From positions 33,863 through 97,862 of the IMG/VR virus record IMGVR_UViG_3300017963_000216: DNA of 64,000 nucleotides. One strand, written 5' to 3'. Each line of letters begins with the position of its first letter. The first letter of the stretch is position 1. Under the pieces are notes generated by a model. It was not told where the DNA came from. It did no database searches and was given only the letters and a program-made list of their open reading frames with translations. The DNA comes from a virus (lineage: Duplodnaviria; Heunggongvirae; Uroviricota; Caudoviricetes). Positions 102-63,671 of this stretch are shown here, piece after piece. The position numbers and the translations under genes were made by a program.

Positions 102-196
102 TTGTTGCGCTCCGCGTACAATGCCATGATGACGAACCCACAGAAGATGATCAGACAGAACAGTCGAGCTGTTGCGGCGAGGGCATGTGGATTCAT
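98..196 (-). CDS. hypothetical 32-aa hydrophobic micro-protein
   Basis: MNPHALAATARLFCLIIFCGFVIMALYAERNK. ATGA-coupled to both neighbours; single predicted TM segment. Confidence 0.2.
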   Translation of the reverse strand: MNPHALAATARLFCLIIFCGFVIMALYAERNK

Positions 197-1270: not shown

Positions 1271-1394
1271 GTCCGTGTACCAGTACGACCCGCATGGCCT
1301 CGTAGAGTTGGTCCGACTCGATCATGCGCCCTTGCATGACAAGCCGCAGCTTGTGGTCGAACACGTCCAGTGCTTGCTCGTAGGTCATTGTCAT
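1170..1394 (-). CDS. hypothetical protein
   Basis: 74-aa ORF; its start overlaps the stop of the upstream small ORF (ATGA). Confidence 0.4.
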   Translation of the reverse strand: MTMTYEQALDVFDHKLRLVMQGRMIESDQLYEAMRVVLVHGREPLAVALRKRDRLTRDLRLLNQVIDGDTPRGT

Positions 1395-1537
1395 ATCGTG
1401 TCCACCTTGATTACGGGGCCGTCGTCGCCGGGTATGATCGTGAACTCTTCCTGCACGCCGTTGACGAGCAAGGTGACCGACCGGGCGTCACTGTACTCGG
1501 ACAGAACCTGTTCCATTTCCCAAATCTCTACGCTCAT
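1391..1537 (-). CDS. hypothetical small protein (48 aa)
   Basis: MSVEIWEMEQVLSEYSDARSVTLLVNGVQEEFTIIPGDDGPVIKVDTI. Not in the ORF track because it is under 60 aa; fills the gap in the operon. Confidence 0.25.
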   Translation of the reverse strand: MSVEIWEMEQVLSEYSDARSVTLLVNGVQEEFTIIPGDDGPVIKVDTI

Positions 1538-1549
1538 GAGGGGTCCTTT

Positions 1550-1936
1550 CTAACGTGGGGCGGCCAGGAACCAATCCTTAGCCATCTTGTATATCATGTA
1601 CTTGTGGGCGTGCCTCAGGTCTTTGCCGGTCGGCACGCTCCGGTATGCTGCGCCATAGAGGCACATCAGCCGCCCATCCTCGGCAACGTAGCTCAGGTAC
1701 GGGCGACCGCTACGGGTGTAGCAGGTGGCTGTCAGGCTCGTGTGCACGCACAGCTTGGCCACCGGTTCGCCTTCCTCGTAGTTGAAGAAGATGAACTGAC
1801 GAAGCGACTGGTACTCTTCTCCGTTCTGGCTGGAGACGAGCCACACATCGTTCTGTACAATCAGGTCGAACTCACGCACCTCCACCACGTCTGGGTTGAC
1901 GTCGGCGAGGCAAACTAGGAGTATGAAGGTCGTCAT
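1550..1936 (-). CDS. hypothetical protein with N-terminal hydrophobic/signal-like segment
   Basis: Internal start MTTFILLVCLADVN at 1936 is ATGA-coupled to the stop of the Cys-rich ORF. The upstream part of the track ORF is Arg-rich out-of-frame-like sequence. Confidence 0.45.
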   Translation of the reverse strand: MTTFILLVCLADVNPDVVEVREFDLIVQNDVWLVSSQNGEEYQSLRQFIFFNYEEGEPVAKLCVHTSLTATCYTRSGRPYLSYVAEDGRLMCLYGAAYRSVPTGKDLRHAHKYMIYKMAKDWFLAAPR

Positions 1937-2190
1937 TCTTTGTGCCTTAGCTGGTCGCACCAGCAGTAGTCGCAGATGATCGTGCCGTCTACGACGTTCT
2001 CGTTCCCAGGGCAGCCACCACGGGTGCCGCCACAGACTTCGCAGCCGCACTCAAGGTCGATCAGAAGCCTCAGCTCCTCGAAATCGTCATGAGTCAGCAA
2101 GCCCAACGACGTCATCTGGTACACCATGATGCTGGCTTGCGGCGGCTTGGCACAGGCCACCTGCTCAATGGCGGTCAAGTAATCGTTCAC
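1933..2190 (-). CDS. Cys-rich small protein (candidate RiPP precursor or small metal-binding protein)
   Basis: GTG start at 2190 overlaps the radical SAM stop (GTGA) and is preceded by GAGGAA. The acidic N-half (DDFEELRLLIDLE) is followed by CGCEVCGGTRGGCPGNENVVDGTIICDYCWC. Confidence 0.45.
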   Translation of the reverse strand: MNDYLTAIEQVACAKPPQASIMVYQMTSLGLLTHDDFEELRLLIDLECGCEVCGGTRGGCPGNENVVDGTIICDYCWCDQLRHKE

Positions 2191-3173
2191 TTGCGTTTCC
2201 TCGCGAAGCAATCAACACACTTGTTGTTGTGCTGCACACATACGTCCAGGCAGTTCTTTCGGCAGATCGGGTCCGCGTGTGTGTTGTGCCTGACCATCCA
2301 CCTGACTCGATCTTTGCGCATGTCAGGGCCAACCTCACCAATCGGCTCGCCCTGCTCCCGCATGTAGATCACGCAAGGGAAGTGGTACTTGCCACAGACG
2401 ACCGAGTCGTCGACAACGATGGAGCAGGTGGACGTGTCCGTTTGCTTGATGCCACGAACCGCCTTACCCGCCAGCAGGTTCGCCACACGGTAAGCGAGGA
2501 TCGGGTGCTTGTCCAGGGTGTGCTGCGGGATCGCCTCCACGCCCTCGATCATGTTGCCTTCCTGTGCTGCCGGGATGATCCGGATGTCAGCCACACCAAG
2601 CTCAGACGCCGTCGCCACGATACCTGCGAGGTCGTCCTTGTTGTCGTCGGTCAGGACGACACCCACGGTGACGTAGGTCAGCTCGGACAGTTGGCGGATG
2701 TTCTCGGTGATCCGTTCGTACTTGCGGATGCGGGACTCGTTAGTGCCAGACATCGTCTCGCAGTCCTCAGCACAGCACGCGTCGAACGAGATGCTAAAGT
2801 CGTTGACACCAGCGTCGATCAGGGATCGGTAGCGGTCGTACGGGAACGAGCCGTTGGTGCTTATAGCAATCCGCTCCACACCCTGAGCCTTCGCACGACA
2901 GCAGAGCTGGTGCAGGTGAGGGTAGAGCAGCGGCTCGCCGCCAGAGAAGCGGATGTTCTTCAGGCCCTGTGCGCACCACTGGTCCAGCACTTCGATAGCA
3001 CGGGTGACCGGCATATCGCCTTGGCAGTCGTCACGCAGGCCACGGCAGTACGGGCACTTGAAGTTGCAACGCTCGGTCAGGATCATCTCGCAACGCCACA
3101 TTGGGCTTTTGATGCTGAGGCTCTCCGTTCGAGAGTCTTCCAGGGTGTAGAAGCCGATGTCTTCGAGTTTCAT
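2187..3173 (-). CDS. radical SAM enzyme (MoaA/PqqE-like core with extra C-terminal Cys cluster, SPASM/twitch-like)
   Basis: CNFKCPYC (CxxxCxxC), NIRFSGGEPLL, AISTNG and a C-terminal CRKNCLDVCVQHNNKCVDC cluster. Start set at the internal ATG (MKLEDIG) at 3173, adjacent to the upstream stop. Confidence 0.75.
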   Translation of the reverse strand: MKLEDIGFYTLEDSRTESLSIKSPMWRCEMILTERCNFKCPYCRGLRDDCQGDMPVTRAIEVLDQWCAQGLKNIRFSGGEPLLYPHLHQLCCRAKAQGVERIAISTNGSFPYDRYRSLIDAGVNDFSISFDACCAEDCETMSGTNESRIRKYERITENIRQLSELTYVTVGVVLTDDNKDDLAGIVATASELGVADIRIIPAAQEGNMIEGVEAIPQHTLDKHPILAYRVANLLAGKAVRGIKQTDTSTCSIVVDDSVVCGKYHFPCVIYMREQGEPIGEVGPDMRKDRVRWMVRHNTHADPICRKNCLDVCVQHNNKCVDCFARKRK

Positions 3174-3430
3174 GTCTTTGTAATTCCCAGGCTGTCGGTG
3201 ATTGTTTTCCAGAGCGGACGTCGCAGCCGCTGTTGCAGCAGGGCTTCCTCTTCCATCATGTCCCAGATCTCTTCGAGCGTGTTGGCTGATTGGAACCAGC
3301 TGTCGCAAGCAGGGCCGTTGACGTAGATGCGTGACTTGAACTCCTCACCGTTTTTGAGCCGCGACATCGCCGTCACGTGGCTAGTGTTGACGATGAAGAA
3401 CCCAGTAATTGTCTTCAGTTTGATCATCAT
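3170..3430 (-). CDS. hypothetical protein
   Basis: 86-aa ORF, tightly packed in the operon. Confidence 0.45.
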   Translation of the reverse strand: MMIKLKTITGFFIVNTSHVTAMSRLKNGEEFKSRIYVNGPACDSWFQSANTLEEIWDMMEEEALLQQRLRRPLWKTITDSLGITKT

Positions 3431-12407: not shown

Positions 12408-12661
12408 ACGTCCTCCACAATGTCTTTGATCTCGACGAGCCGAGCCATAATGGCCGAGTTGCGCAGCCTCAGCTCATCGATTGCCTTCTGCGAAGACTTG
12501 CTGTTGTCCTTGCAGAGGAACTGCAAGCGGGTGACTTCGGCCAGTTGATCCCGCCACTTCTTCGCATACTCGTCACGTTCGTTGGAGACCACGATGATTG
12601 CGAAGAAGAGCATGCCACATAAACAGGCCACCAAAATGAAACTTGCTAGTGCACTTGCCAT
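12404..12661 (-). CDS. membrane-anchored coiled-coil protein
   Basis: N-terminal TM (MASALASFILVACLCGMLFFAIIVV) followed by a helical charged region. Confidence 0.45.
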   Translation of the reverse strand: MASALASFILVACLCGMLFFAIIVVSNERDEYAKKWRDQLAEVTRLQFLCKDNSKSSQKAIDELRLRNSAIMARLVEIKDIVEDV

Positions 12662-13470
12662 TATTTCCCCGCTTTCTTAAAGAACTTCTTCGTCCGGCCA
12701 CGGTTGTGATAGCTGGCTCCGCTGAAGACGTAGTCGATTGGAAGGTCAGGGTTGATCTCATCAGGCACCGGTAGCTCATCCGGGATGATCTCATCAGGCA
12801 CAGGGCCGCCACCCTCGTAGTCGTACAGCTTGAGGATGTTGTTCACTCGGTTGTTCTGGTACTTGATGAACGCTTCCAGGTCTTCCAGCTGGGCGTAGTC
12901 TGGGTCGTAATACTTGACGGCTTTCAGGAGCACCTCGGAGAAGTAGATGAATTCCTTCGCCTTCGTGTACCTGTAAGGGTCCTCGGTGCCCGCCATCGTG
13001 TGATACAGAACGCTCATGGCAAACGCGTTGCCCTCGTCCAGGATGTAGAGTGGCTCGCGGTTCCAGTAACGCTGTTGCTCGACGAGGTACAACTTCCAGG
13101 TCTCAGTCCGCCGCGTCTTGTGCACCATCGCAGCCACCTGCTTCAAGGTGACGTCTGGCTCGACGAAGATCACGTAGTGATTGTTCAGCAGGTAGATGGC
13201 GTTGTCGTTCGCCTTGGTCTTGCAACGGATGTCGCTGCTGACTTGGTGGCAGAGTTCATGAACCCAGTTCCCTGGGTCCTTCTCGTTCCGCATCGGGTGT
13301 CCCGCCCTGGCGTGACACTCCAAGTCGTTGATGATCATCCCGTAGCCTTCGTTCTTCACACACCTCTGCTCCGGGTACGTCTGGAACGGCTGGGCCTTCA
13401 GTTGGCTGCCGATCAATAGCGCGGTCGTAATAAGAGCGACCACGATAGCTATACGAATTCGTTTCCACAT
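12661..13470 (-). CDS. secreted protein with HExxH motif (putative zinc metallopeptidase-like)
   Basis: Internal start MWKRIRIAIVVALITTALLIGSQLKAQ is a Sec-type signal; NWVHELCHQ contains HELCH. C-terminal PDE-rich repeats IIPDELPVPDEINPDLPIDY. Confidence 0.5.
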   Translation of the reverse strand: MWKRIRIAIVVALITTALLIGSQLKAQPFQTYPEQRCVKNEGYGMIINDLECHARAGHPMRNEKDPGNWVHELCHQVSSDIRCKTKANDNAIYLLNNHYVIFVEPDVTLKQVAAMVHKTRRTETWKLYLVEQQRYWNREPLYILDEGNAFAMSVLYHTMAGTEDPYRYTKAKEFIYFSEVLLKAVKYYDPDYAQLEDLEAFIKYQNNRVNNILKLYDYEGGGPVPDEIIPDELPVPDEINPDLPIDYVFSGASYHNRGRTKKFFKKAGK

Positions 13471-15106: not shown

Positions 15107-15286
15107 TTACAGGCACGGACCAATCCAGGTGTATGTGCTGTTCAAGCAATCGAGGATGACTTCCATCCAACCTTCGTCGTCGCTGCTGCAAACCACCTCG
15201 TTTTCCTGAAGGTCCATAATGTCGTAAAGGGCGCAGCAGTGGCAGCCGCTCTTGTTCTCTACCACTTTGAATCGGGGTCCGGTCAT
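15107..15286 (-). CDS. Cys-rich small protein (59 aa)
   Basis: MTGPRFKVVENKSGCHCCALYDIMDLQENEVVCSSDDEGWMEVILDCLNSTYTWIGPCL. GGAGTGAA RBS; ATGA-coupled to the Tat-signal protein gene. Confidence 0.3.
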   Translation of the reverse strand: MTGPRFKVVENKSGCHCCALYDIMDLQENEVVCSSDDEGWMEVILDCLNSTYTWIGPCL

Positions 15287-15576
15287 TTCACTCCTCTTTC
15301 TGTTCTGACTCTGTCCATCGCCTTCGCGGCGTGCGGTTCAAAGTCTCGGTGTACAATGTCAGCTATCGCCATGTTCTCTTGGAGTACCTTTAGGCCATCG
15401 CATGCCCAGGACTCAGGTACAAAACAATCTATGCCAGTGGTTCCCACCGCACAGGGGGCGGGGACCGCCGCTACAGAGGGGGTGCTGCCTCCCAACAAAG
15501 GAAGCGGCAACACCATTGCTGGTATTGCCGCTCCAATCACCCTAAGAAACGATCTTCGTTTCATGCTATCGGACAC
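15283..15576 (-). CDS. small exported protein with twin-arginine (Tat) signal peptide
   Basis: MKRRSFLRVIGAAIPAMVLPLPLLGG is an RRxFLR Tat motif plus hydrophobic core. The mature part has 3 Cys. Confidence 0.5.
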   Translation of the reverse strand: MSDSMKRRSFLRVIGAAIPAMVLPLPLLGGSTPSVAAVPAPCAVGTTGIDCFVPESWACDGLKVLQENMAIADIVHRDFEPHAAKAMDRVRTERGVK

Positions 15577-26647: not shown

Positions 26648-29392
26648 ATGCAAAATCCCAGAATGACAGTCGCGTACAAGACGTACTATGACAATGTGCT
26701 GTCAAAGAACCACAACAATCCCGAGCTTATCGCTCGATGGGGCAACGACCCGGCGCGATTAGAGACCCAGATCCTGTGCTTCAACCACGGACGTCCCATT
26801 GAGGACTCCAAGATGTTCGAGGACAAGGGAGAGGTCTTCGGACCCGCTCGGTGGCCTTACAACGCCAAGACCGAGCCCAATTACAGCAACCCGCCAATCC
26901 AATATATTATAGGCGACCGTATGCAATGCATCGGGAGCACATGGTGGAACTGGAAGGAACGGCACTCTGAGGGGCTTGGCTTTGACTTTGATACCATAGC
27001 CGGGCACGCCGACGGCATCGGGATCTCGGACAAAGAGATGGCCAAGCTGGACAAGATCGATGTGCCGTGGCTGGAAGTCATCCGCTCGACGCGGGGTGGC
27101 GGCAGGCACTTGTACATCTGGTTCCAGGAGCCATACCCAGTAACAATGAATCATGACGAGCACGCTGCGCTCGCACGTTCGTTCATTCCGCTGATCGCCA
27201 AACACACAGGCTTCGACTGCGAAGCGAACGTAGATGTCTGCGGCGGGAACATGTGGTTCCACCACGTGGAAGCAACAAAAGAGAATCGCGGCTACTCGCA
27301 GGTGAAGCCAGCGACACAGATACTGACTGACGCCCACGTCCCTCCGAACTGGAGAGATCATCTTGAAGTTGTCTCGGGCGGCAGGACCAAAGTGAGAGTC
27401 CAAGGATGGACCTCCGATGGAACAGAGACCGAGGGCGACGAACTGGACGAGATGACCCAGGCGCACTCTAAGATTGAACTCGACGAGATCCACCTCCGTA
27501 TACTGGAAGAGCTGGAAGAGACAGGGCACACAGCTCTGTGGGTTCCGGATCACCATCTGTGGCAGGGGCACACGGGCGGGTTGAAAGAAGTGTACGACAA
27601 GTGGGCTGCGAACGACACTCCGATGAAGGGCCTGTTCGACACCAACTCGCACGAGCAGGATCGAGGCAAGCCTAACTGCTTCATGAGGCCCAAGGCGAAC
27701 GGCGGCTGGGATGTGTACCGCTTCGGTGAGGCTGTGGAGTGTGAGCTGTGGGGTAAGCAAGGCAAGTGGACCCACACCACCTACAACTTCCCGGCGACGC
27801 TTCGTCAGATCGCGATGGCGTGTGGAGGCTTTGAAGGTCCGGACCCGAAGCAAGGGTTCATCTTCAGCACAGCCGCAGAGATGGAAGCTGCGTTGGTGAT
27901 GCTGGGGTCAAAGATAACGCTCCCTGTCGCCGCTGTGAAGGACACGTCTCGCACAATGGCGTTGCGTGCACGCGAGTCGGACGGCAAGATCGTGCTGGTC
28001 ATCAGTAAGAAAGGGAAAGATGAGCCAGGGGACTGGCCTCGGTTCGCGAAGACGACGAAGGGGTGGGAGCGGGTCATTGACGACGCGATAGACACCTCCG
28101 ACAAAGAGCAAGAGGACGCGGAGCTGTGGACAGAGCTGGACGACAAGTTCAGGGCGTTGAAGATCGGCGACAAGTTCGACGACTGGGTGCTGAGAGACCA
28201 CAGTGAGAAGTGGACCATCCACCCGCGTGAAAACGTCAAGGCGTACCTGATGTCTCAAGGGATCGCGAAGGTGGACCCTGTGATAGGTGCCGCCGTGTTC
28301 AAAGCATGGCAATTGACGAATGACCCGTTCGCCCCAGAGTATCCCGGAGGCCGCAAGTGGAACAGGAACGCAGCCCAGCTGAAGTATGCCCCTCGCGAGA
28401 TGGGAGAGGACGAAGCTCCCCACCATCCAAACTGGGACCGGGTTATGAACCACTGTGGGACCGACCTGGACGAGTACATACTCGATCTGCCTTGGACCGC
28501 TTCGTGGGGAATCCGCAGAGGTGGCGATTACTTGACTGCTTGGATCGCGTGCATGTTGCGCCAGCCTCAGTGCAAGCTTCCCTACCTTTTCATGTACGGA
28601 CCTCAGAACAGTGGCAAGTCCATATTCCACGAGGCGATCTCGGAGCTTATGACCAAAGGCGTGGTGAAAGCTGACCGGGCACTCACCTCGAAGCAGGGCT
28701 ACAACGGCGAGCTGATGGATGCGGTACTTGCGGTTGTCGACGAAGTGAACATCAGCAAGTCGGGCGGCATGGAGGCGTACGACAAGCTGAAAGAGTGGAC
28801 GACCGGCATGACGGTCAGCATCCACGCCAAGTACAAGCAGGTCCAGGAAGTGGCGAGCACGTTGCACTTTGTGCAGATGGCCAACAACCGCAGCAGCCTG
28901 CCTGTATTCCCAGGAGACACGCGGGTGACCGCGTTCAATGTGCCCAGCTTGGAGGAGGACATTCCGAAGGACGTGTTGCTCGCCTCGCTGCGTAAAGAGG
29001 CTCCGGACTTCATGCGGACTCTGGTCGACCAGACGATGCCGGAAGCCCTCGGGCGTATGAGGCTGCCGGTCATAGAGACTCGTGGCAAGCAAGAGGCCGT
29101 GATCGGCAACATGAATCCCTTGGAGCTGTTCATCCAAGAGAGGTGTCACATGATCAACGGCGGCACCGTGCTGTTGAAGGATTTCAGGGACCGGTTCTGG
29201 AAAGATCTGGATCAGTTCCAGAAAGACGAGTGGTCTTCAAGGGCTATCAAGGACAGGCTGTCAGAGACCTTCCCTATTGCCTTGGACTCCAGAAAGAATG
29301 TCCGTATTGGTAACCTCAGTTTCACAAAGTGTGAGCCCACCGCTAGGTGGTTCGTAGATAACAACAAACTTGTGCAGGAGAGTGCAGAATGA
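26648..29392 (+). CDS. bifunctional primase-polymerase (AEP) / SF3 (D5-like) helicase
   Basis: AEP motifs DFDTIAGHAD and STRGGGRHLYIWF; Walker A GPQNSGKS; Walker B VVDEV. Start set at MQNPRM (26648) with GGAGAT RBS rather than the RBS-less 26612. Confidence 0.8.
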   Translation: MQNPRMTVAYKTYYDNVLSKNHNNPELIARWGNDPARLETQILCFNHGRPIEDSKMFEDKGEVFGPARWPYNAKTEPNYSNPPIQYIIGDRMQCIGSTWWNWKERHSEGLGFDFDTIAGHADGIGISDKEMAKLDKIDVPWLEVIRSTRGGGRHLYIWFQEPYPVTMNHDEHAALARSFIPLIAKHTGFDCEANVDVCGGNMWFHHVEATKENRGYSQVKPATQILTDAHVPPNWRDHLEVVSGGRTKVRVQGWTSDGTETEGDELDEMTQAHSKIELDEIHLRILEELEETGHTALWVPDHHLWQGHTGGLKEVYDKWAANDTPMKGLFDTNSHEQDRGKPNCFMRPKANGGWDVYRFGEAVECELWGKQGKWTHTTYNFPATLRQIAMACGGFEGPDPKQGFIFSTAAEMEAALVMLGSKITLPVAAVKDTSRTMALRARESDGKIVLVISKKGKDEPGDWPRFAKTTKGWERVIDDAIDTSDKEQEDAELWTELDDKFRALKIGDKFDDWVLRDHSEKWTIHPRENVKAYLMSQGIAKVDPVIGAAVFKAWQLTNDPFAPEYPGGRKWNRNAAQLKYAPREMGEDEAPHHPNWDRVMNHCGTDLDEYILDLPWTASWGIRRGGDYLTAWIACMLRQPQCKLPYLFMYGPQNSGKSIFHEAISELMTKGVVKADRALTSKQGYNGELMDAVLAVVDEVNISKSGGMEAYDKLKEWTTGMTVSIHAKYKQVQEVASTLHFVQMANNRSSLPVFPGDTRVTAFNVPSLEEDIPKDVLLASLRKEAPDFMRTLVDQTMPEALGRMRLPVIETRGKQEAVIGNMNPLELFIQERCHMINGGTVLLKDFRDRFWKDLDQFQKDEWSSRAIKDRLSETFPIALDSRKNVRIGNLSFTKCEPTARWFVDNNKLVQESAE

Positions 29393-30576
29393 GTGACGGC
29401 TTCAAAGACAGTGGAAAACGTAGCAGCTTCGAGACAGGCGCGCACCGCGATCTCCAGGATGGCAAAGGGCGTATGGATTTGCTGCCTTTCCAGGCACTGA
29501 TGAAGGTGTCGAAGGTGTTCGAGGAAGGGGCGAAGAAGTATCGCGCGAACAACTGGCGGCGGGGCATTCCGCTGTCGCGGTATGCGGATTCAGGCATGCG
29601 GCACATGTCCAAGTGGATGATGGGCATGCGAGACGAGCCCCATCTGGATATGGCATGCTGGAACTTCCTCTGCCTCATCGAGACTCAGGAGCTGATCAAG
29701 CAAGGGCTGCTTCCGGAAGAGCTGAACGATCTGCCGTACAACCCGCTGTGCATCGAGGACAATCCGCTCGAACTGCCTGAGCTGGATCTGCCGTTGGAAG
29801 GTGTGGAGCTGGATGAAGTGGGGAAGGAAGAGACGTTCACTATGACGGCTTCTCAGTTTGAGGAGCACATGGCTGGCGTCAGGAAGAAGGAAGCGTGCAA
29901 GGACGAGACCGGCGACGCGTTCTACGCGGCCCAGGCAGCTGGCCTGTGCACCGGCAACAGCATCTATGGTTCCATCTTGTCAGAAGAGGATCTGTTGAAA
30001 GCCCGGCAGGACATCGCCAAGGCGCAGGCCGACAAAGAGCAGGCCGAGCTGGACGAGGCGGCGGACATGAGCGACTGCCCTGGCTGCGAAGAGCCGGGCG
30101 GGTGTGATGGTTGCGATGCAGACGCGTGGGGCGGAGAGGTGCCGGTCGTCACACAGAAGGCTGCCCAGATGGGGTTCACTAACAGTGTAGCGCGTCAGAT
30201 GCTGGAATCCCGTTGGGACGACGAGGAGTGGGACGAGGAGGAGTGGGACGAATACGCTGATGCGATATATAATGATGCCGAAGCAGAGGCCTTGGCGATC
30301 AAACAAGAGATCTCAGAGTATGTGCCGCTGGAAACGATGCTTTCTTTCGTCATGGAATATGGCCCGGAAGACACGAGGGTGTTGGCCAAAGGCGCTAAGA
30401 TCTCGGGCATGTCGATGACCAAGTACGTGGACGCCTTGAAAGAGATGGCGAACTTCTACAACACTGCGCTCGGCGAGCCCTGGTCGAAGAACTACGACCA
30501 AGATCTGAAGGACCAGAGCCAGCAGCGGGTGGAGGAGCTGTTCAAACCCGAAGAGGGGCTGGAGGGGAAGAGATGA
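29389..30576 (+). CDS. dATP/dGTP diphosphohydrolase-like N-terminal domain (DUF5664-like) protein with acidic C-terminal extension
   Basis: KDSGKRSSFETGAHRDLQDGKGRMDLLPFQALMKVSKVFEEGAKKYRANNWRRGIPLSRY resembles the phage dNTP pyrophosphohydrolase N-domain. Acidic WDDEEWDEEEWDEYAD tract; ATGA-coupled. Confidence 0.55.
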   Translation: MSDGFKDSGKRSSFETGAHRDLQDGKGRMDLLPFQALMKVSKVFEEGAKKYRANNWRRGIPLSRYADSGMRHMSKWMMGMRDEPHLDMACWNFLCLIETQELIKQGLLPEELNDLPYNPLCIEDNPLELPELDLPLEGVELDEVGKEETFTMTASQFEEHMAGVRKKEACKDETGDAFYAAQAAGLCTGNSIYGSILSEEDLLKARQDIAKAQADKEQAELDEAADMSDCPGCEEPGGCDGCDADAWGGEVPVVTQKAAQMGFTNSVARQMLESRWDDEEWDEEEWDEYADAIYNDAEAEALAIKQEISEYVPLETMLSFVMEYGPEDTRVLAKGAKISGMSMTKYVDALKEMANFYNTALGEPWSKNYDQDLKDQSQQRVEELFKPEEGLEGKR

Positions 30577-56000: not shown

Positions 56001-57662
56001 TTATAATACCTTCTCGTCAATGTCGCCGCCAGAAACGATATTGGCCGCCAGTGGCAGGGCTATCTCCGCATAATTGAATGCATGAGCAAAGTGATCGGGC
56101 CCGTTGTTCAAATAGACCGCCTTGCTGTTTCCTAACTCGTCCTTCTCGTACGTTCGCACGAGGGCCTTCAGATGATCCTTGAACTCCAACGAGGTGTCGG
56201 CAGGGATGGTTACTCTGTCTGAGTGGAACCGCCCCATCGAGGCGTCCAGCCAGTTCGTGCGATCCACGGTCACGAGAGCGGCTCCGCTGTCTTCTTCAGC
56301 TATCTGAAGCTCTTTGCCGGTCACACCTCGCCGGTATCGGCATAGGTAGACGTAGCCTGGGAACCGTCGGGCGAACCGCCGCGCGTCGTTGATCTGCGGG
56401 TCCGCGTCGATCACGCACGCCTTGACTTGCCACTCCCGCATCAGCGGGTCGAGGTGCTTGAAGTCGTCGCCCGGCAGCTTGCCTTCCCACAGGATCTTGG
56501 CCTCGGCGGTGGCGTTGACGTCGTAATAGCCGTGCAGCTCGTATTCGACCACAACCACGTGATTCTGCTTACCTTGGTCGACACCCATCACGATGCACTT
56601 GTCGGTGCCGATCTGAGGTCGCTGGTTAGCCTTAAAATAGTTGCGCACTGCCGTCTGGATCTCGTCTTCGGTGATCTGCCCGCCATCCGGGATGTACGGC
56701 AGCCCCAGCTTCGAGTTCCAGAACTCGACCATGGCCGCTTCGTCGCCGATGCCTCGAAAGTGCGCCAGTGCCAGTTCGGCGGGCGTCACAGTGTACGAGT
56801 ACATCTGGTTGACGTAGAAGCTGCGGTGGTCCTCTTCTACTTGTACAGTGTTCTCCCAGAAGGCCTTCTTCAGGAAGTCAGGCTTCTCTTCGTGGTCGAT
56901 TCGCCCTTTGCACTCCTTGCACTTCAGGTGGGATCGCTTCACGTCGGGGTCGGTGATCGTCTCGCCGCAGATCTCCAAGCACTCAGGGAAGATGAACTCG
57001 GTTCGCCTTCCACACCGAGGGCACTTGAAGTAGAAGTGCTCTTGGGTGCCTTGCAGGAACAGCTTGTGGATGCCGAACTGCGGGATCGTCGGGGTGCTCA
57101 GCGAGTGGACGGTCTTGTGGAGCTGACCGGACAGCCGCTCCAGGGCGAGCCAGATGGCTCTCTGATCCATTTCGTCCGCTTCGTCCAGCACCAGCACGGA
57201 TACCGGAATCGACTTCAGGTTGCTGTCGCCGCGCGAGCCTCTGATATAGAGGTTCACGCCGCCAGCTTGCTTGAGGCCGACCGTGTTTGTGTCTGTAAAT
57301 AAGTCCTTCAGGTAAGGGCTGTTCATCAGTGCGGTGCTGAACCGCGACTTGCTGAAGTCACTAGCGTTCAATGCGGTGGGCAGGACGTAAAGTACGTCCC
57401 GCTTGAGCACATCGACTGTGAAGAAGGCGAGGTTGATTGCTACCTCTGTGAGCCCCAACTGGGCTGCCTTCATCGTGCTGTTGTAACTCGCTTGCGAGTC
57501 GTGGATGTCTCGGCACCAAGGGTGGTACTTGAAGCTGTAAGGACCGGGGAAAGGTTCACCCATGATTCTGCGGTGCTCCACCCAGCGGCTGCAAGACGTC
57601 AGTGTGCGAGACACCAGTCCTGAGTTGAGTGCTTCACCAAAAGCATCGAGTAAACCTCCCAT
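56001..57662 (-). CDS. terminase large subunit
   Basis: 553 aa; Walker B VLVLDEADEM; C-terminal RNaseH-like nuclease region with acidic residues (VIDADPQ). Confidence 0.75.
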   Translation of the reverse strand: MGGLLDAFGEALNSGLVSRTLTSCSRWVEHRRIMGEPFPGPYSFKYHPWCRDIHDSQASYNSTMKAAQLGLTEVAINLAFFTVDVLKRDVLYVLPTALNASDFSKSRFSTALMNSPYLKDLFTDTNTVGLKQAGGVNLYIRGSRGDSNLKSIPVSVLVLDEADEMDQRAIWLALERLSGQLHKTVHSLSTPTIPQFGIHKLFLQGTQEHFYFKCPRCGRRTEFIFPECLEICGETITDPDVKRSHLKCKECKGRIDHEEKPDFLKKAFWENTVQVEEDHRSFYVNQMYSYTVTPAELALAHFRGIGDEAAMVEFWNSKLGLPYIPDGGQITEDEIQTAVRNYFKANQRPQIGTDKCIVMGVDQGKQNHVVVVEYELHGYYDVNATAEAKILWEGKLPGDDFKHLDPLMREWQVKACVIDADPQINDARRFARRFPGYVYLCRYRRGVTGKELQIAEEDSGAALVTVDRTNWLDASMGRFHSDRVTIPADTSLEFKDHLKALVRTYEKDELGNSKAVYLNNGPDHFAHAFNYAEIALPLAANIVSGGDIDEKVL

Positions 57663-57670
57663 AACATCCT

Positions 57671-58117
57671 CTACAGTTCGAGTTCCTTGCCCATGTCGGC
57701 GGGCTTGCCCATATCGGCGGGCTTGTCTTCCACCTTGGCTGGCTTCGCTGGCTTCGCTGCTTTAGCCTTCTTCGCCTTGTCTGCCTTCGCCTTGGCTTCT
57801 CCACGCTCCTTAGCGTCACGCACTCGTCGCTCGGCGTCCTTCTTCTGCCGTTCCTTCAGCTCCGCTTCCTGCTTCTCCAGGTCGACCTTCTTCATGTGGT
57901 CTTCGACTTCCAGGAGGCCCCACTGCTTCGACCAGATCTTGCCCTGGCACAACACTTCGTAGTTGCCCCGGCCACGGTCTTTGATCGGCTCGATGATGGC
58001 TTCACAGACGTCGTCGTCGACTTCCAGCTCGCCACGGGTGCAGAGGACAACTACGTTGTCGCCCGGTCGGGTCGTGAGTCGCAGTGTGACGCGAGGCCAT
58101 GGATTAGGAATCTTCAT
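57671..58117 (-). CDS. terminase small subunit-like protein with Lys-rich repetitive C-terminus
   Basis: Internal ATG (MKIPNPW) with GGAG RBS; C-terminal KAKADKAKKAKAAKPAKPAKVEDKPADMGKPADMGK. Confidence 0.4.
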   Translation of the reverse strand: MKIPNPWPRVTLRLTTRPGDNVVVLCTRGELEVDDDVCEAIIEPIKDRGRGNYEVLCQGKIWSKQWGLLEVEDHMKKVDLEKQEAELKERQKKDAERRVRDAKERGEAKAKADKAKKAKAAKPAKPAKVEDKPADMGKPADMGKELEL

Positions 58118-58439
58118 ATTTGTTGGGCTCCAGTAAGAGTAGCGGGGCGATTGTGATGATGAACTCAAGGATGGCTGGCCAGTTGGCCTTGAACCAATCC
58201 CAAAGGTTGGCGAAGATGTCTCGGAAGCCCAAACTCATCAGCCGATCAGGGCCTTCGTACGGGTTGAGACGAGCTTCTTTGATCTTGGCCTCTAACTGGC
58301 GAACACCCTCTTCGGTGCCGACAACGTCCAACACCTTCGCGTAGTCGCGGTAGTGCAGGTTACCAGAGTCCAGCTCTTTGCGAGCCCTCCGCATCGTTCG
58401 GCGTTGAAGCTTTCTGAGTCGTCTCGGCAGTCGTTTCAT
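58104..58439 (-). CDS. hypothetical protein with C-terminal TM
   Basis: Arg-rich N-terminus, C-terminal WPAILEFIITIAPLLLL. Confidence 0.4.
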   Translation of the reverse strand: MKRLPRRLRKLQRRTMRRARKELDSGNLHYRDYAKVLDVVGTEEGVRQLEAKIKEARLNPYEGPDRLMSLGFRDIFANLWDWFKANWPAILEFIITIAPLLLLEPNKYEDS

Positions 58440-58726
58440 TCTTCTTCTCCGGTGGATTCGTCAAGTTCTCGGTATACCTTCAGGATGATGAGCATCCACA
58501 GGTTTGAGCAGGCGATTGTAGCCAAGTAGGCGGTCATTCCGTGGTACAGCACTGGAGCGGCCAGCCAGAAGCCCAGGCAGATTGGACAGTAAAGTAGGTC
58601 GAAGTTCAGGAACTCTCGGACAGGGTGGAACAGCTTACTCTCGCTGAACAAACAAGACAGGACGGCTACGCCCATACCCCACATCATGTATACGCCTAGG
58701 ATGTCTATCATGTCAAGAATGTCCAA
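58436..58726 (-). CDS. small membrane protein (3 TM; holin-like candidate)
   Basis: 96 aa with three hydrophobic segments and a charged C-terminus. Confidence 0.4.
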   Translation of the reverse strand: MDILDMIDILGVYMMWGMGVAVLSCLFSESKLFHPVREFLNFDLLYCPICLGFWLAAPVLYHGMTAYLATIACSNLWMLIILKVYRELDESTGEEE

Positions 58727-59886
58727 CCCTTAGCGATCAGATTGTTCTTGGCTGTTATTGCGGCAGCGCTTCTGTTTACATCATCAGCATAAGCCGCCAA
58801 CCTCAAATCTATTGCTTTGGTTGGTCCACTCTGTGAACCAGACGCATCTATGTTGATATATATCTGGTCTATGACAGTGGCATCTTTGAGTGAGGACATC
58901 TGTCTTCCAGCAAAGTAATCAAAGTTGACCCACTCTGGGTGTACCACTATATCTGTGCAATACCAACTAGATACAGGCGTGAGCCGTTCCATGCTTACCC
59001 ACTCTGGGTACGTGGGAATTGTGTGGATTCTATACGCGCCAATTGAAAATGCTTTCAAATTGACCCACGTTGGGCTTGTTGTTAATTCGTACTCTGGTAC
59101 AGTCGGGTTACCACCAGCTTGTAAGTCTATATTTTCCACCTTGGGCAATTCGTAACCAATGTCTATATGTTCCCACTGGCTATACCCAGCCTTTAGTTCA
59201 AGCAACTCAGGCAGATCACAAAGTGTGAGAGTTTGGCCACTTATTTCCCTGTTGTAAGATACATCTATATTCTGTAACTTCGTCCAAGTCGCTGGGATTG
59301 TGATGTGCTCCATTCTGGAGTACGAACATATGAAATCGGTTAGGTTTGGCCAATCTCTGAGGACGAAACCACCCGCTATTGTTGAAAGTGAACCAGCGAT
59401 TGATAGGTATTCCATACTCGGCCAGTCAAAGGACGGTATGTTCACGTCAGAACCAGAAACATCGAGCCGCCACAGATTAGGCCAGTCTTGCAAACCAGTA
59501 AACTCTGTAAAAGGGTAGTTGCTGAACAGACGAATATCCTCAAAGTTTGACCACTTTGAAGAATTCTTCATGGTGACGGACGTCACACTGTCAGAAACAC
59601 AATACAGAAGGGTCTGGTTACCAACCGGTACTTTACAAGTGGCCGTGCCACCTAGGGCTGAAGACCAAGTTATAGTGATGCTTCCTGATGTGGACGAGGT
59701 TCTGACGTCTGTTACACCAGTTGCGGCATCTGTGCATTTCCACTCCAACGCCTGTTGGTTACTATCATCCCGCAGTGTTATAGCCACATTGGACTGTGTG
59801 TTTGTAATCGTGATTGTGTTAGGCTTACTTCCGGCTTTGGAAAAGCGTCGCCCTCGGTCTATCATGTCGGCTCGTCTCATATCCAA
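58708..59886 (-). CDS. leucine-rich-repeat-like protein (paralog A)
   Basis: W-x-x-L ~22-aa repeats. Conserved N-terminus MRRADMIDRGRR and C-terminus DVNRSAAAITAKNNLIAKGW shared with paralog B. Confidence 0.55.
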   Translation of the reverse strand: MDMRRADMIDRGRRFSKAGSKPNTITITNTQSNVAITLRDDSNQQALEWKCTDAATGVTDVRTSSTSGSITITWSSALGGTATCKVPVGNQTLLYCVSDSVTSVTMKNSSKWSNFEDIRLFSNYPFTEFTGLQDWPNLWRLDVSGSDVNIPSFDWPSMEYLSIAGSLSTIAGGFVLRDWPNLTDFICSYSRMEHITIPATWTKLQNIDVSYNREISGQTLTLCDLPELLELKAGYSQWEHIDIGYELPKVENIDLQAGGNPTVPEYELTTSPTWVNLKAFSIGAYRIHTIPTYPEWVSMERLTPVSSWYCTDIVVHPEWVNFDYFAGRQMSSLKDATVIDQIYINIDASGSQSGPTKAIDLRLAAYADDVNRSAAAITAKNNLIAKGWTFLT

Positions 59887-59898
59887 TCCTGCTCCAAG

Positions 59899-60978
59899 CT
59901 ACGTGCTTACTATGACCCAGCCCCTAGTGACGAGATTGGTCTTGGCGGTTGCTGCGGCGGCACTGCGGTCCACGTCTGCGCTGCCGGGGTTGTCCTGATA
60001 CCAGAAGGTGCCCGTGGCTTTACCGGCGTCGTCGAGAGCGATCAGCAAAGCGTCAATCGTAGTTGCATCCAAGTTATTATCGTGGCAGTAGCAAGTGTTC
60101 AACGCAACCATTGTGTCGTGCAGGTTAAACGAAGTCAGATTGCACGCATGAACATAGAGTATGTACAACTTCGTCCAGGTGTCGTGAGTCTCAAGGCTAG
60201 TCATGCCAAGGTTATTGTTGATAGCCAAGTCATAAATCTCAGTCCACTCTGGATGTGTCTCCAAGCTGGTTATGCCAGTGCTGTTGACATACAGTCGCTT
60301 CAGGTTCGTCCATGTGTTGTATGTGTCAACTGCTGTCAGGGTTGAGTTGACATACAGGTCGAGTCGTTCAAGGCTTGTCCATCCTGGGTGAGTCTCGAAC
60401 GAAATCAGCTTATTGTTGTTGGCACGCAGCGTGACGAGGCTTGACCAAGTATTGTGCGTTGTAACCGTCTGCAAACCGCCACCCAGTTGACTGAATAAAT
60501 ACACCTCACGTAAATTCACCCAGGAACTATGCCCAACAAAATCAGTCAAGTAATTGACGTGCACCCAGATCAGGTCCAGGTTCACCCATGTGTCGAATGT
60601 GTCTATCTCGGTGAGTTCATTCGAGGATATTCGCAGGTCTGCAAGGTTAGTATACTTTCCTTGCCACACGATGTTTGTCAGTTTCTCGCCGGACGCTTCG
60701 AGGTTAACCAGGATCTTATCCAGCTTGACTTTTACATAGTTGTCTGGCGCATTGTCAGGACTGAAGGTGTGGTTTATACCTGTCCCGACATAGGTATCGC
60801 CATCGCTGAACTTCCAGGTTATCGCTCCAGGCGGGTCAGTGACGGTTGAAGATACTATGTCGCTACCAGAAGTGTATAAAGCGAACTTGCCGAACTTACC
60901 ACCGGCTGGTGCGAGGCGTCTGCCTCTGTCGACCATGTCTGCACGTCGCATCATTCGTCGTCCCACTCGGGCTGCCAT
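59899..60978 (-). CDS. leucine-rich-repeat-like protein (paralog B)
   Basis: Seven ~22-aa repeats WTxLxxLxVxxNxLTSLETH; conserved termini with paralog A. Confidence 0.55.
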   Translation of the reverse strand: MAARVGRRMMRRADMVDRGRRLAPAGGKFGKFALYTSGSDIVSSTVTDPPGAITWKFSDGDTYVGTGINHTFSPDNAPDNYVKVKLDKILVNLEASGEKLTNIVWQGKYTNLADLRISSNELTEIDTFDTWVNLDLIWVHVNYLTDFVGHSSWVNLREVYLFSQLGGGLQTVTTHNTWSSLVTLRANNNKLISFETHPGWTSLERLDLYVNSTLTAVDTYNTWTNLKRLYVNSTGITSLETHPEWTEIYDLAINNNLGMTSLETHDTWTKLYILYVHACNLTSFNLHDTMVALNTCYCHDNNLDATTIDALLIALDDAGKATGTFWYQDNPGSADVDRSAAAATAKTNLVTRGWVIVST

Positions 60979-61545: not shown

Positions 61546-62001
61546 TCAGCCTTTCAGTGCCATTCTGTTGTCAACGTACTTGACGATGTCTTCCGCACGC
61601 CAGTAGGTCTTCTGTTGGAGGTAAGTGCCCTTGTAGTAGATCCGGATGGTCGGTACCTTCTTCACGTCCTTGGGCGGCTTGTCAGTGTCATAGTCCTTGA
61701 CAGTGACTGTGAAGCCCGCTTTCACCAGAGCCGGTAGCTCGGTGGCTTTGTATCTTCGACAGGGTCCGCACCAGCTTGCGGTCCAGACTTCGACGATGTA
61801 GCAGGATCGGTCGGTTCGGGGCGTCTGCTCAGGTCCAGCCAGTCGTTGATGATCGCGTACAGCTGGTCCAGCTTCGACCACGACACTCCCTGTATCAAGG
61901 TGGCGCGTAGCAGACGCTTCAGTCGTAACCAGAGCTGAGTGAGCGACAAATAGCGCGAGACAGATGTAAATCGCGGCAAAGCCATTGAGTAACCTCTTCA
62001 T
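61546..62001 (-). CDS. secreted thioredoxin-like protein
   Basis: Signal peptide MKRLLNGFAAIYICLALFVAHSALV; WCGPC thioredoxin active-site motif. Confidence 0.6.
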   Translation of the reverse strand: MKRLLNGFAAIYICLALFVAHSALVTTEASATRHLDTGSVVVEAGPAVRDHQRLAGPEQTPRTDRSCYIVEVWTASWCGPCRRYKATELPALVKAGFTVTVKDYDTDKPPKDVKKVPTIRIYYKGTYLQQKTYWRAEDIVKYVDNRMALKG

Positions 62002-62008
62002 GGTGACC

Positions 62009-63010
62009 TCAAAATAGGATGTACGGAGGGATGTTCAATTTCGGGTATCCGACATACGCGGACAACGCGAACGAGTCGCCTTGCCGCAACATGTAGTCGA
62101 CGGTCTTGGCATCGATCCAGAACGACCCAGCGGGCTGTTCTAGTCGCGTAGGGCCTTCGATCCATCCATAACCCCAGGAGTTGATGCATAACGCACCTGG
62201 GCGGCGGTATTTGTCGTCGTAACCACCAAACATCATGCAGTGCATCCAAGGCTTCCGCTTTCGCGTCAAAAAGCCCTCAGAGTCTCTGCGGCAGACTTTA
62301 CCGTTTCCGAAGCCAACGTTCGAGCAAACCACAACAGGGTGCCCGTTGGCGATGCAGTCGCGGAGGTCGGAGTAAGATCGGCAAATGGCGACCTTCTTAA
62401 CCGGGTGAAGCTTCGTCAGAGGCTCTAAAGCGTCTGGGCAACCCGTTCGGCCATACTCGACCGATTTCTGCGCGTCGTAAGTCGTGAAGTCGTACCCGCC
62501 TGGGTACTCTTGCCTCAAAAGTATACCGTAGCGTGAAATCCACTCTGCACCCCAGTGACCGGTGCTTCCGCCGCCGCGTCCGGTGTAACCACCGATTTCA
62601 ACGCGGGAACCGCCGTAGATGGGCTCTGTGGCGGCTTTGCCCTTCCACATCTCGGGCTTTCGCTCCAGAACGATCTGGATGGCCGACACGAAGTCGACTC
62701 CGAGTGCGAATCCTTGCGAGACACAGTCAGGGGCCTTCTGGTTGTGCGGGACGAGCTTCTGGCCCATCACGCGTTCCAAGGCCTTCCAGAGCAGGACAGT
62801 CTTGCCTTTGCCGCTGCCCTTGATCGATTCGTTCAGGTTGGTGACGTAGGGGTTCTTATGACGACGTATGAAATCTTTGAGAGACGTTTCGTTCGGTGTC
62901 CACCCGAACTGACTGTTGGAGGGCGTGAACAAGCCAGCCGAAGCTGCCTTGGGAAGTAGCAAACCACTCGCGGTGGCTGCCATGCCTTTCAGTGCGTCTC
63001 GTCGGTCCAT
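62009..63010 (-). CDS. Tat-exported papain-like (C1-type) cysteine peptidase
   Basis: Twin-arginine signal MDRRDALKGMAATASGLLLPKAASA; Q..C in NQKAPDCVSQG; His region GHPVVVCSNVGFG; C-terminal CINSWGYGW (the NSWG motif). Confidence 0.55.
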   Translation of the reverse strand: MDRRDALKGMAATASGLLLPKAASAGLFTPSNSQFGWTPNETSLKDFIRRHKNPYVTNLNESIKGSGKGKTVLLWKALERVMGQKLVPHNQKAPDCVSQGFALGVDFVSAIQIVLERKPEMWKGKAATEPIYGGSRVEIGGYTGRGGGSTGHWGAEWISRYGILLRQEYPGGYDFTTYDAQKSVEYGRTGCPDALEPLTKLHPVKKVAICRSYSDLRDCIANGHPVVVCSNVGFGNGKVCRRDSEGFLTRKRKPWMHCMMFGGYDDKYRRPGALCINSWGYGWIEGPTRLEQPAGSFWIDAKTVDYMLRQGDSFALSAYVGYPKLNIPPYILF

Positions 63011-63014
63011 GTCG

Positions 63015-63671
63015 TTACCCTTTCCTTAGCCCCTCTGCGATTTCTAGCCACACCACAGCGTGTTGCTCCGGGGTGGTCAGTTGCCTAGTGGCACAAGCCT
63101 TGCCGATCTTTTCCAGGAGCGGCTTCCAATTATCCATGTCGTCGCCGACGATGGCGCGGTTCGCCTCGGCGGTGGCGGTTATCCAGTCTTTTGGTTCGGG
63201 GAGGTTCGCCATGTCGGCGGCGATCTTCTCGAAGCTGCGTGCAAGGGCCTCCACTTGGCCGCTGTCGAGCTTCATTGAGTCCATCCAGTACGGAATCCAC
63301 TCTGCGAGAGACTCGGTCTCAGGCTGCGTGGGAGGCCCTACGATGCGTATCACGTGGGTGACGATGTCCAGCGTTCCGTCCAAGGCACAGCCGACGATGA
63401 ATCGGTACTGCCCTGGTGCTCTCGCCGAAAACATTGCCCTGCGCCCGGAGTCAATCACCTCGAAGTCAACAGAGTCCGGGACCAATATCCACTGAAAGGA
63501 TTCAGCGGTGGACTCGGAAACATCTAAGCGGACCAGCTCACCGACTCTTGCTTTAGATGGGGCGTCAAGGACTATCTTCGCGCAACTGTCGTTAGCGGGG
63601 ACAGTCGCCTCTTGGGCCAGCGTGGGCATGGTCATGCAGAGAGTGAGGACGATAGAGGCGAAGAGTTTCAT
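63015..63671 (-). CDS. secreted hypothetical protein
   Basis: Internal start MKLFASIVLTLCMTMPTLAQE is a Sec-type signal; the upstream part of the track ORF is Arg/Pro-rich junk. Confidence 0.5.
   Translation of the reverse strand: MKLFASIVLTLCMTMPTLAQEATVPANDSCAKIVLDAPSKARVGELVRLDVSESTAESFQWILVPDSVDFEVIDSGRRAMFSARAPGQYRFIVGCALDGTLDIVTHVIRIVGPPTQPETESLAEWIPYWMDSMKLDSGQVEALARSFEKIAADMANLPEPKDWITATAEANRAIVGDDMDNWKPLLEKIGKACATRQLTTPEQHAVVWLEIAEGLRKG

Follow-up and report, generated by a model that had tools for sequence, protein, structure and literature searches.

Genes for a Tat-signal cysteine peptidase, a thioredoxin and a secreted partner beside the terminase gene: a possible envelope-lysis module of uncultured phages of Planctomycetota

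How bacteriophages leave cells of the phylum Planctomycetota is unknown, and the envelope of these bacteria, with its protein wall and its reduced or dispensable peptidoglycan, has itself long been debated. A locus of the viral record IMGVR_UViG_3300017963_000216 (IMG/VR) raises this question from the side of the phage. Within a stretch of 64,000 nucleotides (nt) of this record, corresponding to its positions 33,863 to 97,862 and hereafter called the window, three consecutive genes encode, in the direction of transcription, (i) a secreted protein (gene C), (ii) a predicted cysteine peptidase with a twin-arginine translocation (Tat) signal (gene B), and (iii) a thioredoxin-fold protein (gene A). 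What could such a set achieve for a phage? The initial annotation, established from the window sequence alone, had viewed these three open reading frames (ORFs) as a cluster of exported enzymes, unusual as phage cargo and part of an unusual secretome. The three ORFs are present as described, on the minus strand, and form one functional and conserved cluster, but a fourth gene, named amph and overlapping gene A, had been missed. Moreover, the set is not cargo: it is a core, position-fixed and lineage-defining module located beside the gene of the large terminase (TerL). The module is read here as acting on the host envelope, most likely in lysis, in uncultured siphovirus-like phages infecting Planctomycetota, the lysis role being given a probability of roughly 0.45, i.e., a little short of even odds.

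The idea that the cluster might be conserved in related phages received strong support. Homologues of B were retrieved from 85 viral loci and 36 genome loci, the ORFs of which were searched iteratively, and the order C-B-amph/thioredoxin-...-TerL proved fixed in about 80 uncultured viral loci showing 40-100% identity, as well as in prophages of Planctomycetota. Upstream of B and on the same strand, a C-like ORF is found in 75 of the 85 viral loci; most of these ORFs abut B, about 10 lie at a distance of 0.25-1.6 kb, and the coupling usually consists of an overlap or a 4-nt spacing. In the 10 viral loci without a C-like ORF, B sits at or close to the contig end. Downstream of B, at less than 1 kb and on its strand, 82 loci (80 of them among the 85 viral ones) have a thioredoxin-fold ORF with a CxxC motif, and in 82 loci TerL is encoded 0.7-4.7 kb downstream of B. 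In the shortest loci, TerL is preceded only by C, B, an amph of about 80 residues (aa), a thioredoxin of the short form and a tail-anchored protein (about 99 aa). Searches of 50,697 deposited phages and of the PLSDB plasmids gave no homologue of either B or C, and the window terminase reaches at most about 25% identity to any deposited phage.

Respective to the host, 33 of the 36 genome matches to B belong to Planctomycetota (Isosphaeraceae, Pirellulaceae, Planctomycetaceae and Kolteria), and the complete phage-type arrangement lies inside two long contigs of this phylum (L087 and L112), which designates Planctomycetota as the host phylum. On Isosphaeraceae chromosomes, a homologue of B devoid of signal stands between a membrane-anchored protein upstream, with no part of C other than its helical domain, and a small membrane protein downstream, in a non-phage neighbourhood (gnd-HAD...Ser/Thr kinase) conserved in 12-13 genomes. 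This set has the appearance of a host version, transmitted vertically, of the pair formed by the peptidase and its helical partner; as such, the pair would either be older than the phage module or have been borrowed from, or by, it.

For peptidase B, the initial annotation had listed landmarks of family C1, the papain-like peptidases. Some of them are real, namely Q91, C96 and the NSWG block, but the stretch GHPVVVCSNVGFG is not the catalytic histidine motif, this residue being found in PWMHCMMFGGYDD. The catalytic residues follow the order Q...C...H...N, i.e., Q91, C96 (nt 62723-62725), H257 (nt 62240-62242), and N277 (nt 62180-62182). Across an alignment of 31 homologues at 48-78% identity, Q91, D95-C96, H257, and S278-W279-G280 are invariant, while N277 is conserved in at least 90%; beyond C96, the sole invariant cysteine is C229, and the disulfide cysteines of subfamily C1A are not conserved. 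B further carries a conserved N-terminal extension of about 55 aa, in which no I29 propeptide was found, the Pfam search of B at E<=1 giving only Peptidase_C39_2 and TAT_signal. The Pfam profile Peptidase_C1 (PF00112), to which the initial annotation would have assigned B, gave no match at this threshold, which formally speaks against the assignment, whereas fold and catalytic residues support it. The match to Peptidase_C39_2 is weak (E=0.002, 19.1 bits for a gathering score of 24), NCBIfam returned no family at E<=1, and altogether Pfam, NCBIfam, and PHROGs brought nothing useful for the family assignment of either B or C. A sequence-profile search of the PDB with B gave only a marginal match to cathepsin K (E=0.08), and in hidden Markov model and profile-profile comparison the H..NSWG block of B aligns with H162/N182 of this same enzyme.

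An AlphaFold2 model of B (pLDDT 87) was compared with the PDB using Foldseek. The best match is xylellain (3ois; E=7e-10, target-normalised TM-score of 0.70), followed by cathepsins S, K, L, and B, papain, cruzain, and Lpg2622 of Legionella. There are 240 matches at E<=1e-3, and among the matches listed (n=50) all are of the C1 family, one of them, silicatein, being a C1 homologue but not a peptidase. In an exhaustive profile search of 1.84 billion proteins, the B family amounted to 1,791 representatives at 50% identity; this search, made with a profile of the family, stays within it and does not reach canonical C1 proteins. Since the profile finds only these 1,791 proteins, the family is a compact one of its own, with a C1-type fold and mechanism. 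Judged on its structural model and catalytic residues, B is a papain-fold cysteine peptidase of predicted activity that falls outside C1 by profile, and its family is a new clan-CA peptidase family, recognised by none of the profile libraries searched.

B begins with MDRRDALKGMAATASGLLLPKAASA, where residues 1-25 (nt 62936-63010) correspond to a twin-arginine signal laid out as MDRRDALK-GMAATASGLLLP-KAASA, with G after the cut, i.e., an RR motif, a moderately hydrophobic h-region and an AxA cleavage site. This signal had been proposed in the initial annotation and conservation favours it: R3 and R4 are invariant in the alignment of 31 homologues, and 63 of the roughly 71 distinct viral N-termini of B that are complete combine RR with a hydrophobic region. 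Against the Pfam profile TAT_signal, though, B scores 15.2 bits, below the cut-off of 22.7. In A, B, and C alike, signal peptides were called by hand from motif, hydrophobicity, charge, and conservation.

B is interrupted, in different relatives, by two LAGLIDADG inteins that are unrelated to each other. The first is inserted directly before the catalytic C96, between IGD and CV (intein C...HN; L063, L073, L075/L080, and L079), and the second directly after the NSWG block, between NSWG and SDW (intein C...GN; L016, L023, and L055). About one fifth of the top 150 representatives of the B family are 600-1,200 aa long, with matches that are split, and some representatives of 816-1,207 aa appear to hold both inteins. 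Inteins are maintained in genes that cannot be dispensed with, at the positions under the strongest constraint; their location at the catalytic cysteine and at NSWG therefore argues for B being an indispensable enzyme and not a moron. The RR signal is kept in all intein-bearing copies, which would fit with export taking place after folding and splicing in the cytoplasm, as the Tat pathway allows and the Sec pathway does not.

C begins with MKLFASIVLTLCMTMPTLAQ, with E after the cut, and its Sec-type signal (residues 1-20 or so), correctly recognised in the initial annotation, is conserved across the C family. In a confident structural model (pLDDT 90), a PKD/Ig-like beta-sandwich (residues ~31-111) precedes a four-helix C-terminal domain (residues ~122-217). 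The sandwich has the PKD domains of clostridial collagenases as best structural matches. The structure search with the helical domain gave no informative match; this domain is the universally conserved part of C and always accompanies B-type peptidases. Considering that C and B are obligately coupled, their genes mostly overlapping or 4 nt apart, they could be viewed as a regulated protease-inhibitor pair, akin to a toxin and its antidote, where B, inhibited or chaperoned by C, would serve abortive infection or the takeover of the host. Such a pair is also suggested by the signal-less chromosomal homologues of B, which are accompanied by the helical domain of C on its own, and Ig-fold proteins do occur among the known inhibitors of C1 peptidases. 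However, the Ig domain of C matches PKD domains, chagasin is absent among the structural matches listed for C, and chagasin motifs were not seen in the C sequence or family alignment; more generally, neither the fold of chagasin/ICP or staphostatin nor their active-site-binding loop motifs were recognised in C. As an explanation of the module in its own right, this pair is unlikely, and an inhibitory role of C would in any case fit lysis, as a timing device, rather than oppose it.

Gene A encodes a thioredoxin, as initially proposed from its WCGPC motif: the protein scores 26.0 bits against Pfam Thioredoxin (PF00085), above the gathering score of 23.5, with WCGPC at residues 77-81 (C78-C81, nt 61759-61770) and a cis-Pro loop VPT. 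In NCBIfam, weak matches to thioredoxin, DsbE, TlpA, and StoA are all far under their cut-offs and no equivalog is reached. Among 73 distinct relatives of A, the CxxC motif and the cis-Pro are each 100% conserved, and the inner dipeptide of CxxC varies freely (GP, RY, YP, SA, PA, and others). The N-terminus, composed of MKR, LLNGFAAIYICLALFVA and HSALVTTEASA, provides a hydrophobic anchor or signal at residues 4-24, followed by a non-conserved linker. The N-terminal flank of this anchor is more positive than the C-terminal one in 40 of 46 distinct long thioredoxin forms, with mean charges of +1.5 and -0.8, respectively, from which an N-in/C-out topology with a periplasmic thioredoxin domain is predicted. 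The Sec-secreted thioredoxin of the initial annotation is thus retained as far as a predicted N-terminus of exported type is concerned, but, from sequence features, A is more likely signal-anchored, in a CcmG/TlpA-like manner, than freely secreted, and many relatives are short and signal-less. ORFs of about 88 aa with a CxxC motif in minimal loci, considered as possible homologues of a 96-aa membrane protein of the window, turned out to be short thioredoxins upon iterative search. With Pfam and PHROGs, no gene for an electron donor to A, e.g., CcdA/DsbD, was seen among the window proteins.

The fourth gene, amph, was not called in the source annotation. It has a plausible Shine-Dalgarno sequence (AGAGG) upstream and encodes a cationic amphipathic core (LWLRLKRLLR...) as well as a C-terminal end PPSYRLW (window 61725-61745), the family pattern being M..LW(R/L)R..(R/V)(W/L)LR..L...W......ND(Y/W).., then a Pro-rich stretch. 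By iterative ORF searches, homologues were found directly after B in 78 loci, in two configurations, (i) split loci, where amph is a stand-alone gene with a short thioredoxin next, and (ii) 47 distinct long loci, where amph lies inside the thioredoxin ORF, in its 5' half, with a frame offset that is always +2. Over the embedded stretch of these 47 loci, the thioredoxin frame has 0 stops in about 4,100 codons and the third frame has 254, while in split loci both alternative frames are rich in stops (112 and 130 in 1,527 codons). With 254 stops in the third frame, the stop-free thioredoxin and amph frames must both be kept open, i.e., they constitute a conserved overlapping gene pair, and the thioredoxin linker is unconserved because its sequence is dictated by the amph frame. 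That amph would be the mere N-terminal part of the long thioredoxin, following a gene fusion, was ruled out, as the same DNA is read in a different frame. The thioredoxin appears, on comparison of split and long loci, to have gained its membrane anchor by extending its frame upstream over the amph gene; such an acquisition by overprinting makes the pair a clean and statistically strong case of conserved overlapping genes.

Two or three products of the module, not homologous to one another, also share a C-terminal tail, (D/N/E)-Y-x-(I/L/V/F/M)-(W/F/Y)-COOH, found in 44 of 78 B, 27 of 76 thioredoxins, and 0 of 68 C. Among the 4,048 ORFs of the loci, 75 end in this way and 71 of these 75 belong to B or the thioredoxin. 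In the window, B ends with ..PPYILF (62009-62023); tail-bearing thioredoxins are encountered in L017, L020, L029, L047, and others, and, in the clade of the window, the thioredoxin is without the tail while amph has it. The motif is not enriched in the other window proteins, with 2 found for 5.6 expected. A function as docking or sorting signal can be offered as a guess.

What, then, would such exported proteins act upon? The planctomycete envelope possesses a protein wall resistant to sodium dodecyl sulfate (PMC3422733); in the class Planctomycetia this wall is rich in cysteine, while peptidoglycan can be dispensed with or is lacking. Cysteine-rich YTV wall proteins are found in Planctomycetales only, a distribution opposite to that of peptidoglycan genes (PMC8567305, PMC12673574), and most genes for peptidoglycan synthesis are non-essential in Planctopirus (PMC10632474). 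A protease and a disulfide reductase sent to the periplasm would suit a cysteine-rich wall, and this is why envelope lysis is ranked first. From the side of the phage, neither a classical endolysin nor a known muralytic family was recognised among the 69 window proteins with Pfam and PHROGs, and a search with T7 lysozyme as query found nothing. The module lies directly upstream of the terminase, is co-oriented with packaging and structural genes, and is accompanied by small predicted membrane-active proteins. This position can be likened to the one that the lysis cassette of lambda has with respect to cos and the terminase genes. Most likely, the module replaces a classical endolysin against a protein-rich host envelope.

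The course of events could be as follows. B would fold in the cytoplasm, where some relatives would also splice out their inteins, and would be exported in folded form via Tat, its catalytic cysteine and other thiols being shielded from oxidation in transit; the probable benefits of Tat export are indeed the protection of the catalytic thiol and the possibility of intein splicing beforehand. C, exported via Sec, would join B in the periplasm as a partner, regulator or targeting subunit. Held by its N-terminal anchor at the outer face of the cytoplasmic membrane, the thioredoxin would keep the peptidase thiol reduced and/or reduce disulfide-linked substrates, while amph and small membrane proteins may supply membrane-active and timing functions. 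Degradation of the envelope would then be the task of a protease attacking envelope proteins and not of a muralytic enzyme.

Several elements weigh against envelope lysis. To our knowledge, C1-type peptidases are not known as endolysins. The profile searches could have missed a muralytic enzyme that is divergent, and peptidoglycan is present in several planctomycetes (PMC4432640). The lysis role of the module, substrate included, is deduced from sequences and models, and its signal peptides are judged by hand. In NCBIfam and further family searches, amph, the 91-aa and the 111-aa membrane proteins described below found no match to holin or spanin families. The signal-less chromosomal homologues of B indicate that the family also has a non-phage, probably cytoplasmic, role. 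As regards the thioredoxin, it is just 86-107 aa long in about 19 split loci, with CxxC around residue 10 and no signal, so that a periplasmic redox role would not be universal unless the short form is co-exported; these short thioredoxins could be either cytoplasmic or co-exported. In most split loci the peptidase keeps its Tat signal, and in L058-L061 it has a Sec-like hydrophobic N-terminus instead. Finally, L054 and L056 are without any thioredoxin and have a 60-aa two-helix membrane protein in its place.

Besides lysis and the protease-inhibitor pair, the export signals of the module proteins could serve superinfection exclusion or receptor destruction, where the exported protease, with its helpers, would trim or remove surface or periplasmic proteins of the host that serve as receptors or entry factors, and thereby protect the infected or lysogenic cell or keep progeny from being adsorbed again by debris. 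The existence of prophage copies is in line with such a function, and so is the PKD/Ig domain of C, which is typical of binding modules. Exclusion genes, though, are usually variable morons, whereas the present genes are near-universal in the lineage, fixed in position and co-oriented beside packaging and structural genes, and the inteins at catalytic motifs argue for an essential function in the lytic cycle; exclusion is therefore improbable, much like the protease-inhibitor pair. Still less probable is an accessory or nutritional moron, i.e., a secreted protease and an oxidoreductase benefiting the lysogen, for instance by digesting proteins that have been taken up into the periplasm, and dispensable to the phage. 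Planctomycetes do have an enlarged periplasm (PMC3422733) and the gene products do carry export signals, but this account accords poorly with the same trio order in about 80 loci diverged to 40-100% identity, with the inteins in B, and with an overlapping gene maintained over 47 distinct loci. A virion morphogenesis protease, with B cutting capsid or tail proteins in the cytoplasm and RR not being an export signal, is very improbable and equally at odds with conservation, signals, and inteins: the module does adjoin the terminase and portal genes, and some relatives as well as all Isosphaeraceae copies lack a signal, but 63 distinct viral sequences retain RR, hydrophobic region, and AxA site, C carries a Sec signal, the anchor of long thioredoxins is of N-in/C-out type, and the window capsid protein is P22-coat-like, a type that assembles with a scaffold and without maturation protease.

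Returning to envelope lysis, a more detailed and decidedly more speculative version can be formulated. Lysis would proceed by proteolysis and disulfide reduction and not by peptidoglycan hydrolysis: the Tat-exported papain-fold protease and the membrane-anchored thioredoxin, aided by the PKD/helical partner and the overprinted cationic peptide, would dismantle the cysteine-rich, disulfide-stabilised protein wall peculiar to Planctomycetia. The complex would be assembled by docking through the tail (D/N)-Y-x-(I/L)-(W/Y/F), which the C-terminus of the protease has in common with that of either the thioredoxin or the small protein. In all its parts together this version is doubtful. If true, it would provide the first example of a lysis system centred on a protein wall, as well as the first Tat-dependent lysis enzyme; among the papers listed in a literature search, judged by titles and abstract openings, there was no earlier account of the module or of a Tat-dependent endolysin. 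The module also points to the envelope component that holds planctomycete cells together, which is testable via the substrate of the protease, and its enzymes could serve as tools to lyse planctomycete cells, which are hard to break. Taken as a whole, the interpretation given in the initial annotation is partly supported, and among its proposals a role in lysis or as a cell-wall peptidase has the best support.

The phage in the window is siphovirus-like. Its genome encodes a large terminase of the GpA type, a portal, a coat protein of the P22 type and a tape measure, together with ParB, a primase with DUF5906 and a DNA polymerase of family A. The window corresponds to the reverse complement of positions 4358-68357 of a metagenomic contig of 73.9 kb (JGI 3300017971, Ga0180438_10000529). 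The genes C, B, and A are separated by gaps of 4 nt (C-B) and 7 nt (B-A); downstream of them, the order is two small ORFs, two leucine-rich repeat (LRR) proteins, three proteins of 91 aa (membrane), 111 aa (tail-anchored) and 148 aa, and then TerL and the portal (Table 1). Upstream of C, a 68-aa gene overlaps the start of C via ATGA. Homologues of the 91-aa membrane protein (mem96 family) lie between B and TerL in 40 loci, and this protein may be a candidate holin. Homologues of the 111-aa protein occupy the same interval in 79 of 82 loci and form the final gene ahead of TerL in minimal loci; a holin-like or packaging-related role may be envisaged for it. No lipoprotein spanin was noticed, though no search aimed at spanins was made. 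The two LRR proteins sit between the module and the terminase and, being present in only 7 loci, look like lineage-specific cargo.

Table 1. Module genes, neighbouring genes and groups of loci. Positions are those of the window, except for L095.
Feature	Position	Strand	Length (aa)	Characteristics
Gene C, secreted partner	63015..63671	-	218	Sec-type signal, PKD/Ig-like sandwich, four-helix domain
Gene B, Tat-signal cysteine peptidase (predicted)	62009..63010	-	333	Papain (C1-like) fold
Gene A, N-terminally anchored thioredoxin-fold protein (anchor predicted)	61546..62001	-	151	Pfam Thioredoxin
Overlapping gene amph	61722..61985	-	87	Other frame, wholly within 5' half of gene A
Candidate module membrane protein	58436..58711	-	91	About 3 hydrophobic segments, CPIC motif, acidic C-terminus
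C-tail-anchored small protein (g111)	58104..58439	-	111	Basic N-terminal domain, single C-terminal hydrophobic helix
Large terminase TerL, GpA type	56001..57662	-		Pfam GpA_ATPase and PHROG terminase; positional anchor, outside module
LRR proteins, two paralogues	58708-59880 and 59899-60954	-		N-terminal RRADM(I/V)DRGRR motif common to both
Isosphaeraceae-type loci	e.g., L095 9510-11622			L091-L101, L113, L115, L116, L118, L121
Split loci with short thioredoxin				L029, L035, L036, L038, L039, L043-L049, L052, L057-L061, L065, L067, L079, L086

Elsewhere in the window lie two further proteins of exported type already mentioned in the initial annotation: positions 12661-13470 (minus strand) encode a protein of 269 aa, without family match, that combines a signal at its N-terminus with the HExxH motif VHELCH, and positions 15283-15576 (minus strand) a 97-aa ORF beginning with MSDSMKRRSFLRVIGAAIPAMVL, Tat-like, where the source annotation has an ORF on the opposite strand. 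A 395-aa protein encoded at 29389-30576 (plus strand) has an N-terminal dATP/dGTP diphosphohydrolase domain; together with radical SAM and nucleotidase genes at 193-3308, it hints at a modified-nucleotide metabolism. The match of this protein to phrog_2252 ('endolysin; inhibits RNA polymerase', E=4e-23) corresponds to the dGTP-diphosphohydrolase N-domain and not to an amidase, so that the label is misleading here.

Compared with known systems, the module combines features that are otherwise met apart. With C1A peptidases such as xylellain (3ois) and Legionella Lpg2622, B shares the two-lobed papain fold, the Gln-Cys-His-Asn site and NSWG, and, like xylellain, it has a short N-terminal extension in place of a long I29 propeptide; unlike C1A peptidases, it has neither a PF00112 match nor the conserved C1A disulfides, and it is phage-encoded with a Tat signal and an obligate partner gene. 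A resembles CcmG/DsbE, TlpA, ResA, and StoA in having an N-terminal anchor, then a thioredoxin domain predicted to face the periplasm, with CxxC and cis-Pro. It differs from CcmG/DsbE-type reductases in its scores far below cut-offs, a free CxxC dipeptide, an overprinted linker and signal-less short forms, and no link of A to cytochrome maturation was found. As for the C-B pair, staphopain-staphostatin, as well as chagasin/ICP with papain-type enzymes, are known protease-inhibitor pairs; there too, the gene of a small partner is coupled to that of a papain-fold peptidase and the partner has an Ig-like beta-sandwich, but C has a sandwich of PKD type, and it is its helical domain that is universally conserved. 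Viral clan-CA cysteine peptidases that, instead of a glycosidase or an amidase, break a non-standard host barrier at release are exemplified by V-CATH of baculoviruses, a C1A peptidase, and by PeiW/PeiP of methanogen phages, which are C71 pseudomurein endoisopeptidases. Neither is related to B in sequence, judging for PeiW/PeiP by the family assignments (C71, as against C1-like for B); V-CATH acts on animal tissue, and, unlike B, neither V-CATH nor PeiW/PeiP has Tat export or a thioredoxin partner. A parallel in terms of redox can be drawn with Sec-signal and signal-arrest-release (SAR) endolysins such as Lyz of P1, whose catalytic cysteine, locked in a disulfide, is released through thiol-disulfide isomerisation: these lytic enzymes reach the periplasm in advance of lysis, as B would, and the redox state of the catalytic cysteine matters. 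Those endolysins, however, are Sec-exported muramidases, whereas B exhibits a protease fold with a Tat signal and is accompanied by a separate thioredoxin gene.

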